A DNA stretch of 4,524 nt from a virus (taxonomy: Duplodnaviria > Heunggongvirae > Uroviricota > Caudoviricetes), in the IMG/VR virus record IMGVR_UViG_2778261639_000017. One strand, written 5' to 3'. Position 1 is the first letter of the stretch; every line of letters begins with the position of its first letter. This document shows, piece after piece, positions 111 to 4,450 of this stretch. The notes under the pieces are model-generated. The model made no database searches, was not told where the DNA came from, and saw only the letters and a list, made by a program, of their open reading frames with translations. Made by a program: the position numbers and the translations under genes.

Positions 111-311
111 TCAGGCAGCCTTGTTGTTCTGTTTGTCAAGTTCTCTGGCAATTATTGCCGTCGTTCGTATTGCCCATTTATCGACATATTTCCTATCTTC
201 CATTACAGGAAACATTTCTTCAGGCTTAACCATGCATTCCGATTGCAGCTTGCATCCATTACATCGCTTGAATTGTCCACGCCATTGATTTTTATCAATA
301 GTCGTAGTCAT
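111..311 (-). CDS. ral: Ral-like restriction-alleviation protein (66 aa)
   Basis: ORF of 66 codons with an ATG start at 309-311 (minus strand) and an AGGA Shine-Dalgarno about 8 nt upstream. Size, a Cys-containing RCNGCK...C motif, and position distal to N and sieB in the leftward early operon fit lambda Ral. The sequence also resembles lambda Ral as I recall it (recall not verified). Confidence 0.6.
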   Translation of the reverse strand: MTTTIDKNQWRGQFKRCNGCKLQSECMVKPEEMFPVMEDRKYVDKWAIRTTAIIARELDKQNNKAA

Positions 312-524: not shown

Positions 525-1106
525 ATGAACAACTCATGGTGGCAGGAACTAATGCATTTTTTCCTGCAAGGAATGACACTTAAACAGTTGATTCATATGC
601 TAATCATCCTGATCATATTGATTATTGTTATGCCGGTAAGCGTAAAAGAATGGATAAACCTGCATAATCCAGAAATCCTTCCTCATTACTGGATGTATTA
701 CATCCTGTTGTTTTGCGTTAGCTATGTGCTTAACGGCGTTGTTAATTCCGCTTATCACGCTGTGACTGAAAGAATTGAGGTATCCGCTGCTCAGAAGCGC
801 AAATCTAAAGAAGAAAAATATGTGCAAGATTTGTTTGATTCATTAACTCTTGGAGAAAGAGCGTATTTGGCATTCGCTGTAGCCGCTAATAACCAGCTAC
901 AAACGGAAAAGGGAGCTCATGAATCAATTTCATTGCTCAAAAAAGGACTCCTCGTTCGAAGGCCTCCTGCTGTTGGATATCCTGATACCGACCGTTTCGT
1001 TATCCCTGAAAGCTATAGACATGAGTGCTACATTAGGTTTGCCGGGAAGGCAGACAGCCTTATGGATGAACTTATCGCTCAGGATAAGCATGGCAAAAAC
1101 AAGTAA
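525..1106 (+). CDS. sieB: SieB-like superinfection-exclusion protein, predicted inner-membrane protein (193 aa; alternative start ATG 552 giving 184 aa)
   Basis: Long + strand ORF ending in TAA at 1104-1106. The N-terminal part has two strongly hydrophobic stretches (LIHMLIILIILIIVMPV and YWMYYILLFCVSYVLNGVV) typical of SieB. It lies between ral and N and converges on N, as sieB does in lambda. ATG 552 has the better Shine-Dalgarno (CAGGAA, 4-nt spacer). Confidence 0.6.
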   Translation: MNNSWWQELMHFFLQGMTLKQLIHMLIILIILIIVMPVSVKEWINLHNPEILPHYWMYYILLFCVSYVLNGVVNSAYHAVTERIEVSAAQKRKSKEEKYVQDLFDSLTLGERAYLAFAVAANNQLQTEKGAHESISLLKKGLLVRRPPAVGYPDTDRFVIPESYRHECYIRFAGKADSLMDELIAQDKHGKNK

Positions 1107-1122
1107 TTAGCAAATGAATTTA

Positions 1123-1395
1123 TCATCTCGCCGTCAGTTGTTTTGATTTCCGGTAGCCTGCCGCGTAAAGAGCTACGTTCGGAAGACAAGTTGAACCTTC
1201 ATATTTTCTGGTCAACGTTGTCAGAGTTATCACTTCTGCTCTCATTGCTGGTTTGCGCTTGCATTGCAAGACCACTCGTGAAGGGGTTGGCCTGTGTAGC
1301 TTGTCGGAGCTGATCGCCTCCTGACTTTGCAGATTTGCGCGACGAGCTCTACGGCGAGAAGCTGCGGTGCCTTTAAATTCTGTTTTTCTGGACAT
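1123..1395 (-). CDS. N: Antitermination protein N (90 aa) with an arginine-rich motif and a P22 gene-24-like C-terminus
   Basis: ATG at 1393-1395 is preceded by a strong Shine-Dalgarno (GGGAGGAA, 5-nt spacer). The N-terminal region carries an arginine-rich motif (GTAASRRRARRANLQ). The C-terminal residues ...LPNVALYAAGYRKSKQLTAR closely resemble the P22 N-like protein as I recall it. The 24-codon upstream extension in the ORF track (to 1467) is rejected because it lacks a ribosome-binding site. Confidence 0.75.
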   Translation of the reverse strand: MSRKTEFKGTAASRRRARRANLQSQEAISSDKLHRPTPSRVVLQCKRKPAMRAEVITLTTLTRKYEGSTCLPNVALYAAGYRKSKQLTAR

Positions 1396-1493
1396 GGATT
1401 CCTCCCGAATAAACTTTGGCGATGCAATCTCGAAGCTCCTCCTGAGACGGTTGCTTCGGCATTGCATCCCACAGCTTATGTGGTTGGGTGATC

Positions 1494-1797: not shown

Positions 1798-1828
1798 GGC
1801 AAAGAAAACCCGGCGCTGAGGCCGGGTT
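1798..1828 (-). terminator. Intrinsic terminator of the cI-cassette operon: 8-bp GC-rich stem (AACCCGGC / GCCGGGTT), 6-nt loop, then TTTTCTTT on the minus strand
   Basis: Seen directly. The hairpin at 1807-1828 begins 3 nt after the stop of the 250-aa gene (stop at 1832-1834) and is followed on the minus strand by a T-rich tract (+ 1798-1806). Confidence 0.65.
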
Positions 1829-1831
1829 GTA

Positions 1832-2584
1832 TTATGCTGCAAGTCTCTTAATCCAAGTCTCTCTTTTGGAGAATGGTAGAACTTGGCTTGATTCATGGAA
1901 GAGTAAGGAGAGTTGTTGCATTTGATCACCAATTGCTTCGCTGTCTATAACAACAAATCTGTTGTTATACTCCTCACTTGAAGCTTTAAGATCAATTAGT
2001 TTCCCAAGCAATGAGTAAGCACTATTCCAGCTTCCTCCGTGTTTCACGCTTGATGTAAAAACGTATTTAGGTATGTCGGTTTTTATTGTTACAGGGACGG
2101 TAATTTGATGTCCACTCAAGCCATATACGTTTTCACGAAGAGAAAGTGCGTCTCTAAGCTCTGTGTGATATAGATAATCAATAACCATACTTTCAAACTT
2201 TTCAGCTTGAACTGGCTGATACCAGTCTAACGACAAAGTTGATGCGAGTATACCAGCTCTAATTATGTTCGATGTAATCGCACCGACATCCTTTTCTGTT
2301 GCCCAAGCAATGATTTCTCCTCGAGCATTGAGTTCTGCGCCTTCTTTAAGCAGTAATTGTCGTATCTCATCAAGTCGTTTTTTGGTAAGCGAGATCCCTC
2401 TTGCCTCCATATTCATTAAGGCATCGCATCTGTCACTAACTAAATACCTACCATTGACTTCACGGATAAAGGCACCGACATGCTCTCCATCATCACAGTA
2501 AGTGAATGGACTGATAATTCTCAAGGTCTTGCCTATTGGATGGCATTCGAAACCTAGTTGTGAGATCACTGTTGAGCACATCAT
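1832..2584 (-). CDS. Hypothetical protein, 250 aa, distal gene of the two-gene cassette in the rexAB-equivalent slot; function unknown
   Basis: Long minus-strand ORF. Its ATG (2584..2582) overlaps the TGA stop of the upstream gene in an ATGA arrangement, indicating translational coupling. No transmembrane-like segment, P-loop or other motif I can recognise. Not RexB-like (RexB is a small multi-pass membrane protein). Confidence 0.8.
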   Translation of the reverse strand: MMCSTVISQLGFECHPIGKTLRIISPFTYCDDGEHVGAFIREVNGRYLVSDRCDALMNMEARGISLTKKRLDEIRQLLLKEGAELNARGEIIAWATEKDVGAITSNIIRAGILASTLSLDWYQPVQAEKFESMVIDYLYHTELRDALSLRENVYGLSGHQITVPVTIKTDIPKYVFTSSVKHGGSWNSAYSLLGKLIDLKASSEEYNNRFVVIDSEAIGDQMQQLSLLFHESSQVLPFSKRETWIKRLAA

Positions 2585-3138
2585 ATTCCAAACCCCATTT
2601 GCCCCGACTCATCTTCAAGCGGTAAAGGTACTCTCCCAGAGTAAGTTATGTTCAGATGTTTACAGAAGTAATTCCAATACCCTACCAGGTCATCTGGGTT
2701 TATGTCATCTTCGATTGGAAACGCTATTCTATCACTATAGTATCCAGCTTCTTCATAGTATACATGGTAGTGAGCACCGTAAATGATATCTTGGTACTTC
2801 GGATGATCGACCTTGTAACTATTCGTGTGTTTGTCAAAGTGATAGGTATCTACCGCGAAAACCCTCTTGTTATGATAGAAAGCAATAATATTTATTTTAG
2901 GGTAAGAAATCGGGTCATCAGGTTCTGAATCCTGATCTGGTTTCCATTTCAGTTCAAACTTTAGCCCTTGTATAGGTATACAATCCTCATCCAAGGGGAT
3001 GATATGAGCTTGTAGCCACATATCAGAGCGACTTGGTTTCTGTTTCCATTTAACGCCAGAAAAGTTAACTATTTTTTTACAATAAAGTACTTTATCAACT
3101 TCTACTTGGCTTGGCTGATAATCATCTATTTTTGCCAA
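2581..3138 (-). CDS. Hypothetical protein, 185 aa, proximal gene of the two-gene cassette immediately downstream of cI; function unknown
   Basis: Minus-strand ORF bounded by an in-frame TAA two codons upstream. The only start consistent with full length is TTG at 3138..3136, with AGGGCGG about 6 nt upstream; the next in-frame ATG is at codon 40. The product is acidic and aromatic-rich (many D, E, Y, H) with no hydrophobic segments. It starts 39 bp after the cI stop. Confidence 0.7.
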   Translation of the reverse strand: MAKIDDYQPSQVEVDKVLYCKKIVNFSGVKWKQKPSRSDMWLQAHIIPLDEDCIPIQGLKFELKWKPDQDSEPDDPISYPKINIIAFYHNKRVFAVDTYHFDKHTNSYKVDHPKYQDIIYGAHYHVYYEEAGYYSDRIAFPIEDDINPDDLVGYWNYFCKHLNITYSGRVPLPLEDESGQMGFGI

Positions 3139-3177
3139 TGTTTACCGCCCTGTAAATTGTAGATAAAAGTGGTTTCA

Positions 3178-3831
3178 TCACCCAAACGTCTCTTCAGGCC
3201 ATTGGCTGGCGATAACTTTCCCCACAACGGAACAACTCTCATTGCATGGGATCATTGGGTATTGTGGGTTTAGTGGCTGTAGAAACACCTGACCGCTATC
3301 CCTGATCAGTTTCTTGAAGGTAAATTCATCACCACCAAGTCTGGCTATGCAGAAATCGCCGGGCTCAACAGCTTGCTCAGGGTCAACCAGAATTAACATC
3401 CCGTCAGGAAAGCTGGGTTTGGAACCTGTTGGTGCGGTCATTGAGTTACCTTCAACCTCAAGCCAGAATGCAGAGTCACTGGCTTTTTTGGTTGTGCTTA
3501 CCAATCTCTCCGCATCGCCTTTGGTAAAGGTTCTGAGTTCTGGAGAGAACATCCCAGCCTGAACATGAGAAAAAACAGGGTACTCATATTGTTTTTTAAC
3601 TGGGGCCGATGAGTATTCGCCAACAGGTGAAAATGTCCCGTCGTGGTTGAATGATATGTTATCAATACCAAGGTATTTAAACACCACACCAATATCACTA
3701 AGAGATGGATGACGAGATCCGCGCAACCAGTGTCCAATCCCACCCTGCGTCATACCTAGCTCTTCGGCTAACTTCTCTTGAGTTATGCCGAGCTCTTTCA
3801 TTCTGGATCTAGCCAGTTCATACCATTTCAT
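3178..3831 (-). CDS. cI: CI-type prophage repressor: XRE-family HTH N-terminal domain plus lambda-CI-type S24/LexA-like autocleavage C-terminal domain
   Basis: The C-terminal ~135 residues ([16 protein letters not shown]...SQWPEETFG) match lambda CI as I recall it at all but one position, including the Ala-Gly cleavage site (VQAGMF), the catalytic Ser (GNSMTAP) and Lys (FKKLIRD). The N-terminal domain ([38 protein letters not shown]...) is an unrelated HTH. Start chosen at ATG 3829-3831, which has AAGGA 7 nt upstream. Alternative starts are ATG 3835-3837 and ATG 3871-3873 (which would be leaderless-like, as in lambda PRM); TTG at 3879 is the track's limit. Confidence 0.9.
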
Positions 3832-3873
3832 TTTCATGTCCTTATTATTACGCTTTGTACTGGAACCATCCAT

Positions 3874-3946
3874 GCACAATGTGTATTTTTACTTGTATTC
3901 TTAAAGTACATATTGTATTTTTATTCGTGTTTACTATGGAGGGCAT
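3874..3946. promoter_or_regulatory. Divergent cI/cro control region (OR with PRM and PR). Candidate PR: -35 TTGTAT 3893-3898, -10 TATTTT 3916-3921, operator 12-mer TAAAGTACATAT 3902-3913 in the spacer. cro Shine-Dalgarno GGAGGG at 3938-3943
   Basis: Seen directly: an AT-rich intergenic region between the divergent repressor and cro genes, with recurring TGTA/TACA inverted motifs (for example the 17-mer TGTATTCTTAAAGTACA at 3894-3910, half-sites matching 6 of 8). The 12-mer is shared with the pL region in the same promoter-relative position. Confidence 0.6.
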
Positions 3947-4162
3947 ATGAGCAACCTACGAAAATATCGAGAGTCACTGAATATCTCTCAAACAACACTT
4001 GCTAAGGCAGTTGGATGCACACAGGGAGCTATCGGACATTGGGAATCTGGTCGTCGCTTCCCAGACCTTAAAACATGCCGTGCTCTTGTTGCATGCCTAA
4101 ACAAGTTAGGCGCAAAAGTCAGTCTTGATGACGTGTTCCCGCCGGAACATAAAGCCGCTTAA
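3947..4162 (+). CDS. cro: Cro-like HTH regulator (71 aa)
   Basis: ATG at 3947 is preceded by a strong Shine-Dalgarno (GGAGGG). The product has an XRE-type helix-turn-helix (ISQTTLAKAVGCTQGAIGHWESG). It is divergent from cI across the operator region. Stop TAA at 4160-4162. Confidence 0.85.
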   Translation: MSNLRKYRESLNISQTTLAKAVGCTQGAIGHWESGRRFPDLKTCRALVACLNKLGAKVSLDDVFPPEHKAA

Positions 4163-4172
4163 TAAGCGGATC

Positions 4173-4218
4173 CGCTCTTTGTAACAACGGACATTCGTCC
4201 TACGTCGCTGAAAAGCGA
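4173..4218 (+). promoter_or_regulatory. nutR: nutR: boxA (CGCTCTTTGTAACAAC, 4173-4188), spacer hairpin (GGAC-ATTC-GTCC, 4189-4200), boxB-like hairpin (TCGCT-GAAA-AGCGA, 4205-4218)
   Basis: Position-for-position parallel to nutL on the opposite strand (boxA, small hairpin, TACGT, then a 5-bp stem with GAAA loop). The boxB stems differ by base-pair-preserving changes (GGCU/AGCC versus CGCU/AGCG). Located just downstream of cro, as in lambdoid phages. Confidence 0.6.
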
Positions 4219-4303
4219 GTTCCAAGATATCTGACCAACTAAGGCCATATGCGTTTCCACGCATACCTTTCAACTAACTATTCACTATTGGAAATCTTAA
4301 GAA

Positions 4304-4450
4304 ATGGAAAGAACAAGTTACAGCAAACTATCACAGCGTGACGTTGATCGCGCAGAAACAGATTTACTTATCAATCTGTCAGCTATTACCCAGCGCGGTC
4401 TGGCAAAGATGATTGGCTGTCATGAATCGAAGATAAGCAGAACGGACTGA
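4304..4450 (+). CDS. cII: CII-like HTH activator, apparently truncated (48 aa) by an in-frame TGA
   Basis: Hand translation gives MERTSYSKLSQRDVDRAETDLLINLSAITQRGLAKMIGCHESKISRTD then stop. The HTH segment aligns with lambda CII (...LLNKIAMLGTEKTAEAVGVDKSQISRWKRDW...) as I recall it. Lambda CII is 97 aa. The frame stays open beyond the TGA to the window edge. Confidence 0.4.
   Translation: MERTSYSKLSQRDVDRAETDLLINLSAITQRGLAKMIGCHESKISRTD

Follow-up and report, generated by a model that had tools for sequence, protein, structure and literature searches.

A conserved two-gene cassette replaces rexAB in a lambdoid immunity region and may form a lysogen-expressed defence module

Results

Organization of the A-B cassette

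We analyzed a 4,524-nucleotide (nt) stretch of viral DNA (IMG/VR record IMGVR_UViG_2778261639_000017; Caudoviricetes), referred to here as the window. The whole window is a lambda-type immunity region, in which two genes, designated A and B, lie downstream of the repressor gene cI in the position that lambda assigns to rexA and rexB. Gene A (2581–3138, minus strand) encodes a protein of 185 amino acids (aa) with a conserved N-terminus, MAK, and begins with a TTG codon (3136–3138). Gene B (1832–2584, minus strand) encodes 250 aa. The TGA stop codon of A and the ATG start codon of B are fused in an ATGA overlap (2581–2584, minus strand), an arrangement of translational coupling. The start of A at 3138 is separated from the cI stop codon (3178–3180) by a spacer of 39 nt (3139–3177, minus strand), which carries a weak Shine-Dalgarno-like sequence, GGGCGG, and cannot accommodate an independent promoter. 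A promoter scan returned six promoter-like sites against 9.9 expected, and no internal promoter is proposed because such sites occur inside the cassette at chance frequency.

The predicted cI-A-B transcript would end at an intrinsic terminator (1807–1828, minus strand), the counterpart of lambda t_imm and 933W tM. Its stem, running from 1828 to 1807 and starting 3 nt after the B stop codon, consists of eight pairs, six of them G-C, followed by the U tract UUUUCUUU. It folds with a predicted energy of −17 kcal/mol (z = −3.46), which no sequence among 200 shuffles equalled. In 933W, the 47 nt matching this region carry the annotation 'terminator tM'. An initial annotation of the DNA, made from its sequence alone, had described the same gene sizes, spacer, overlap and terminator, all of which our analysis reproduces. 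It had also held that neither product is a membrane protein, and we agree: no membrane segment was found in A or B, whose maximum 19-residue hydropathy values are 0.45 and 1.19, respectively, far under the 2.39 of RexB.

The cassette occupies an exchangeable slot

The blastn homology breakpoints between the window and lambda, the viral contig L041 and phage PhiR11_1 delimit an exchangeable cassette at 1829–3176, a segment defined without regard to strand. In the comparison with lambda, positions 3177–3588 match over a stretch that starts 1 nt ahead of the lambda cI stop codon and continues into the gene, and positions 1707–1828 match the t_imm region with 90% identity, ending 2 nt into the rexB stop codon. 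Window 1829–3176 therefore replaces lambda 35827–37225, which holds rexB and rexA, and the 'rexAB slot' proposed in the initial annotation holds at nucleotide resolution. The viral contigs L041–L044 carry cI, OR and cro 96.5% identical to those of lambda, followed by A-B; in these prophages of lambda-type immunity, A-B takes the place of rexAB. PhiR11_1 (PV340547) has flanks 98.7–98.8% identical to the window at 79–1828 and 3176–4449, and carries between breakpoints equal to 1829–3176 a different two-gene cargo (L137, 3549–4929) encoding 283 and 163 aa. Neither of these genes matches Pfam or PADLOC, and the pair is another unassigned candidate system. A-B illustrates, at the nucleotide level, how cassettes are exchanged within the lambdoid immunity region between two fixed breakpoints, t_imm and the cI stop codon.

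Other phages fill the slot differently. In 933W, where it is bounded by the same terminator, it holds L0084-L0083-stk-L0081. The product of stk (L135, 3715–4761), the Stk kinase, matches PD-T4-6 models, and L0084 (L135, 5284–5625), which adjoins stk, matches the PADLOC candidate PDC-S43 (4e-41). The slot of mEp506 is occupied by HicA-HicB-HicC, a toxin-antitoxin-chaperone module. The interval between cI and N has been described as a mosaic hotspot and 'variable defence locus' (PMC8585504, PMC7067206, 10.1101/2024.02.24.581848). The bstA gene lies in the same position as the cassette and is transcribed from the cI promoter (PMC7067206, PMC8585504), and HigBAC, which is related to HicABC, is an experimentally shown defence system at this locus (10.1101/2024.02.24.581848). 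The statement in the initial annotation that this is a known site for defence cargo accordingly matches the published role of the interval as a hotspot (PMC8585504; 10.1101/2024.02.24.581848). Because the slot is already known to house such cargo, the presence of A-B in it is not conceptually surprising.

A-B resembles the candidate system PDC-M24

The initial annotation could place neither protein in a known family, a statement that profile searches overturn for B and, less firmly, for A. B belongs to the DUF1828 family (33.5 bits; Pfam cutoff 22) and matches PADLOC PDC-M24B, a DUF1828-containing model of about 250 aa, over residues 2–248 of its 250 (6.1e-10). Among 25 B-family members, 21 match PDC-M24B, the best at 7e-15 to 1e-14. 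The match of A to PADLOC PDC-M24A, which is DUF6978-like, is weak and partial (5e-4, residues 104–163 only), as is that to DUF6978 itself (2e-4; 22 bits against a gathering cutoff of 29.6). Six of 23 A-family members match PDC-M24A (up to 1.5e-6) and seven match DUF6978 (up to 2e-6), and none of the 23 matches any other family. Both A and B fall in PHROG families of unknown function. On these profile matches, A-B is best explained as a divergent, prophage-specialised branch of PDC-M24, because adjacent genes each matching one component of the same candidate system are unlikely to be a coincidence.

A and B form an obligate pair that follows diverse repressors

An identical cassette is present in phages ev017, ev207, PhiR57_1, PhiR63_2 and Stx1_121427, and in 239 of 5426 complete Escherichia coli genomes (about 4%), whose strains include Shiga-toxin-producing, commensal, animal and ECOR isolates. 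Full-length relatives of B with 48–84% identity were found in Salmonella, Yersinia, Erwinia, Serratia, Photorhabdus, Providencia, Pectobacterium, Klebsiella, Atlantibacter, Edwardsiella, Aeromonas and Thorsellia, and the pair also occurs in prophages of Xenorhabdus and Pantoea. In all 99 prophage loci that were fetched with enough sequence, an A-family gene lies directly upstream of B, its stop codon overlapping the B start. A 518-nt contig labelled Actinomadura rugatobispora (L020) spans the junction of the pair, from the last part of A into the first part of B, the latter having 82% aa identity to enterobacterial B; it is probably a contaminant of the actinomycete assembly.

The co-oriented genes upstream of A fall into 43 clusters at 90% identity, 32 with Peptidase_S24 and 35 with HTH_3, so that 38 are repressor-like. 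The remaining five comprise four DUF3024 clusters and one hydrophobic open reading frame (ORF), and in all five the next gene upstream encodes a cI-type repressor. The DUF3024 gene (113 aa) is inserted between the repressor and A in prophages of Providencia and Izhakiella (L013, L015, L016, L059–L062 and L064, at about 4050–4395 in each); the slot can therefore hold three genes. A single A cluster within E. coli is linked to at least three different repressors, and the prophage backbones carrying the pair include lambda-like, Rac-like with YdaS/YdaT, and Aeromonas prophages. From E. coli to Aeromonas, at least 38 different repressor alleles are found ahead of A-B, and the variety of both repressors and backbones indicates that the pair moves as a unit between repressor operons. 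The pair is thus conserved beside cI in related prophages, a point that the initial annotation had raised.

An exhaustive profile search of 1.84 billion representatives recovered only 32 A-family clusters, the distant members of which are about 22–25% identical to A of the window. When these distant members were used to seed a metagenome scan, 33 loci were obtained, 27 of which leave space for a gene downstream of A. In 26 of these 27, although A is only about 25% identical to that of the window, a B-family gene (E 1e-20 to 1e-51) directly follows it, usually with a 4-nt overlap; in the exception, L111, a split A gene is followed by B after a further 56 nt. The distant A branch was not found in the viral-contig scan. 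Neighbours of the environmental pairs include integrases, repressors of the S24 and helix-turn-helix types, DNA methyltransferases, a terminase, an antirepressor, a resolvase, a TIR protein and ordinary chromosomal genes; these are settings of mobile elements, though not always of repressor operons. A and B are an obligate pair. Their divergences are correlated (r = 0.96 over 61 distinct pairs, a value confounded by shared phylogeny), with A evolving faster. Conservation of A-B over a range reaching about 21–25% identity excludes a non-functional passenger.

Of 45 distinct prophage pairs, 43 have GTG or TTG as the start codon of A, at the conserved N-terminus MAK, whereas 11 of 16 environmental pairs use ATG; a weak start of A seems to be specific to the branch embedded in repressor operons. 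The ATGA overlap is found in 36 of the 45 prophage pairs, and ATGA or GTGA in 13 of the 16 environmental ones. Selection for weak initiation of A together with coupled translation of B would fit a dose-sensitive or potentially harmful A.

Predicted structures and conserved residues

The model of B comprises two domains. The N-terminal DUF1828 domain (residues about 1–121) is predicted to adopt a YbjN/type III chaperone-like fold and resembles the type III secretion chaperones SicP, CesT-family, SycN and SpcU; this is a general protein-binding fold that includes YbjN and DUF2170. The C-terminal domain (residues about 127–250) is modelled as restriction-endonuclease-like, with the PD-(D/E)xK core fold alpha-beta-beta-beta-alpha-beta and a non-canonical conserved site consisting of G155-x-S157-G158-H159, W186, D198 and R209. 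The invariant residues of the B family are P26, D32, G33, D51, G89, W121, G155, S157, G158, H159, P164, W186, G194, D198 and R209. When strands are assigned by the modelled secondary structure rather than by superposition of structures, the strand-2 position of the first Asp is taken by the invariant H159. Strand 3 carries no conserved acidic-x-Lys, so that the canonical D...(D/E)xK is absent as judged by the family alignment (A8) and the strand order of the model. The C-terminal domain may be a derived nuclease or no nuclease at all.

A is predicted to be a soluble, beta-rich protein marked by an invariant pattern of R92, D97, H104-x-N106 and G121-x-H123-x-H125. Across the family, W31, R92, N106, H123, H125, F158 and P173 are invariant, and K22, D97, H104, G121 and Q180 are near-invariant. 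The conserved residues suggest a His-based metal or catalytic site, and the DUF6978 family description, as paraphrased in a preprint, mentions conserved histidines forming a putative metal site. The model of A matched no solved structure, and single-sequence and profile searches of A and B against all PDB chains yielded nothing credible. A match of A to the designed Kelch protein SAKe6AC-LB (1e-10) was rejected, as it sums six weak per-repeat matches with per-domain E values of 52–270. The search of a viral structure library gave one significant match only, to an uncharacterised siphovirus protein.

The surrounding immunity region

The cI ORF (3178–3879, minus strand) encodes HTH_3 and Peptidase_S24 domains (Pfam 1.3e-28 and 2e-10). 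The TTG start of this ORF at 3879 is probably wrong and the true start is probably ATG 3837, which is preceded by AAGGA and gives the N-terminus MKMKWYEL, matching those of related repressors. The gene is mosaic: its C-terminal half (3177–3588) has 93% DNA identity to lambda cI and the N-terminal DNA-binding part is unrelated, which places a recombination junction inside cI. Divergent from it is cro (3947–4162, plus strand; HTH_3, 4e-12), named Cro in PhiR57_1; the window also contains the start of cII. The right operator/promoter region, a pRM/pR analogue, is situated between cI and cro at 3842–3922, the position of lambda OR, and shares operator-like repeats (families D6, I1 and I9) with 1584–1660, the left operator/promoter region or pL/OL analogue, which lies beyond the terminator and upstream of N. 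Neither region is assigned to a strand. The placement of pL/OL and pRM/pR that these shared repeats indicate is that of lambda.

The N antiterminator ORF (1123–1467, minus strand; Pfam N_peptide, 2.3e-32) is the first pL gene and forms the left edge of the cI-N interval. Its start is probably internal to 1123–1467; N is annotated in PhiR57_1 at 273 nt. Between N and ral lies sieB (525–1106, plus strand; Pfam SieB, 2.5e-22; phrog_1301), a superinfection-exclusion gene that, besides the putative role of A-B, gives this short region a second lysogen-protective function. The ral gene (111–311, minus strand) encodes a full-length product of 66 aa that matches Pfam Ral over residues 1–66 of 66 (2.7e-44). 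Ral in the public annotation of PhiR57_1 spans 123 nt only, although that phage is near-identical to the window. No RNA families were found in the window with Rfam.

Discussion

On balance, we lean towards the view that A-B is a lysogen-expressed two-protein defence or exclusion module, an analogue of RexAB in function but unrelated to it. The proposal of an anti-phage system in the initial annotation is strengthened, short of proof, by the obligate pairing of A with B, the linkage to repressors, the defence-holding slot and the matches to PDC-M24; we infer the anti-phage function from sequence. Several considerations weigh in the other direction. An argument from position in a defence hotspot is one of guilt by association, and the cI-N interval also holds morons that are not defence genes, while the environmental relatives adjoin repressors or defence genes only sometimes. 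The match of A to DUF6978 and PDC-M24A covers only its C-terminal 60 residues and falls below the Pfam gathering score, and the correlation of A and B divergences is subject to the phylogenetic confounding mentioned above. The absence of the canonical D...(D/E)xK from B, together with the loss of K173 in distant family members, means that B may not be a nuclease, and A matches no solved fold, so the label 'enzyme' comes only from its residue pattern. Literature searches with PDC-M24, DUF1828/DUF6978 and the phage names yielded nothing relevant to function.

A defence module of this kind could work as follows. A-B would be transcribed with cI from the maintenance promoter, and in addition from pRE during establishment, up to the t_imm-type terminator, and would protect the lysogen against other phages. 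The GTG or TTG start of A and the coupled translation of B may limit the amount of A and prevent it from exceeding that of B, which would be expected of a protein that is harmful when free. The two proteins would form a complex in which the YbjN/chaperone-like domain of B serves as a protein-binding module that either restrains A or recognises a phage protein. The output could come from the His/Asp/Asn cluster of A, a putative metal-dependent hydrolase centre, from the endonuclease-like domain of B with its putatively derived Ser-His-Asp-Arg site, or from both, and would harm nucleic acid or another essential target, so that infection is aborted. We put forward only tentatively the fuller model, in which A-B is an abortive-infection/exclusion system whose mechanism is unlike any characterised: an effector A with a His-based metal centre and an unmatched predicted fold, gated by a B that combines a chaperone-like sensor with a restriction-endonuclease fold lacking the classical triad, and acting as a widespread soluble replacement of RexAB in prophages of Enterobacterales and Aeromonas.

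We consider it unlikely that A-B is first of all an addiction or toxin-antitoxin module, in which a toxic partner is neutralised by the other and the prophage is thereby stabilised, with protection from phages secondary. Two small overlapping genes that are obligately paired and reside on mobile elements have the appearance of such a module, as do the weak start of the first gene and the translational coupling of the second; a nuclease-like domain is predicted in B, and mEp506 carries its HicABC module in the same slot. Searches of Pfam, NCBIfam and PADLOC, however, matched neither A nor B to a toxin or antitoxin family. The pair also lacks the DNA-binding antitoxin domain and the autoregulated promoter typical of type II modules, and would rely instead on the repressor promoter. 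This explanation overlaps with the defence function that we favour, because many such modules serve as phage defences.

Somewhat less probable still is a role of A-B in the life cycle of its own phage, through the lysis-lysogeny switch, induction or excision, instead of an action on other phages. For RexA, a biasing effect on the lambda switch has been reported, and the cyanobacterial XisH/XisI pair, an endonuclease-fold protein with a small partner, controls the excision of its element. The association of one pair with at least 38 unrelated repressor alleles and with differing prophage backbones nonetheless argues against its interacting specifically with a single regulatory circuit; near-isogenic phages such as PhiR11_1 manage without A-B, and beside the environmental relatives an adjacent repressor is often absent. 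We regard as improbable a function of A-B outside phage biology, in which it would be a host-fitness or virulence moron, such as a chaperone-like factor with a host or secretion-system protein as its target: the likeness of the N-terminal domain of B to SicP, CesT-family, SycN and SpcU and the presence of the cassette in Shiga-toxin-producing E. coli and an Stx1a phage would fit such a role, but commensal, animal and ECOR strains are also among the E. coli carriers, the pair is no less conserved in Klebsiella, Providencia, Xenorhabdus, Aeromonas, Thorsellia and uncultured environmental bacteria, and the chaperone-like fold is one for protein binding in general, with YbjN and DUF2170 among its members.

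If A-B is indeed a defence system, it would be a common one, found in about 4% of complete E. coli genomes as well as in the prophages of other genera. It would provide DUF1828 and the DUF6978-like family with their first function and confirm one of the PADLOC candidates. The system is tractable, since ev017, ev207, PhiR57_1 and PhiR63_2 are cultured, inducible phages that carry the cassette, and PhiR11_1, with the same immunity, flanks about 98.7% identical and other cargo, provides a natural control. A-B is not categorically new, as the concept of the slot has been published and relatives of the pair are listed in PADLOC.

A-B shares its setting with lambda RexA-RexB. Both pairs lie between the cI stop codon and t_imm, consist of two genes co-oriented with cI, and are expected to be expressed in the lysogen. 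As the initial annotation had judged, however, A and B are neither RexA- nor RexB-like: they have no match at E ≤ 1 to the Pfam models of RexA (PF15969) and RexB (PF15968), which detect the lambda control proteins at 1e-97 and 8.5e-92, respectively. RexB is a polytopic membrane protein whereas A and B are both soluble, and the folds predicted for A and B are unrelated to the annotation of RexA and RexB. BstA and HigBAC/HicABC share with A-B the type of locus and presumed expression from the repressor promoter (PMC8585504, PMC7067206, 10.1101/2024.02.24.581848), but are likewise unrelated to it: BstA consists of one protein, and HigBAC is a toxin-antitoxin-chaperone system whose sensor is SecB-like.

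At the level of the individual domains, the fold that B would share with the CRISPR ancillary nucleases Can2/Card1 and with the type II enzymes NgoMIV, PspGI and BstEII is accompanied by sequence identities of 7–12%; their catalytic acidic and lysine residues are not conserved in B, which also lacks a CARF domain. DUF1828 of B has no sequence similarity to the proteins of the YbjN/DUF2170/type III secretion chaperone/XisI fold; its invariant acidic motif (D32-G33, D51) is its own, and a nuclease-like domain is fused to it. A-B is placed with PDC-M24, itself a computational candidate only, with which it shares the two-gene architecture and order and a full-length alignment of B, the conserved His block of A aligning more weakly and only in part. 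It differs as a divergent branch specialised to prophage repressor operons, with a GTG or TTG start on A.

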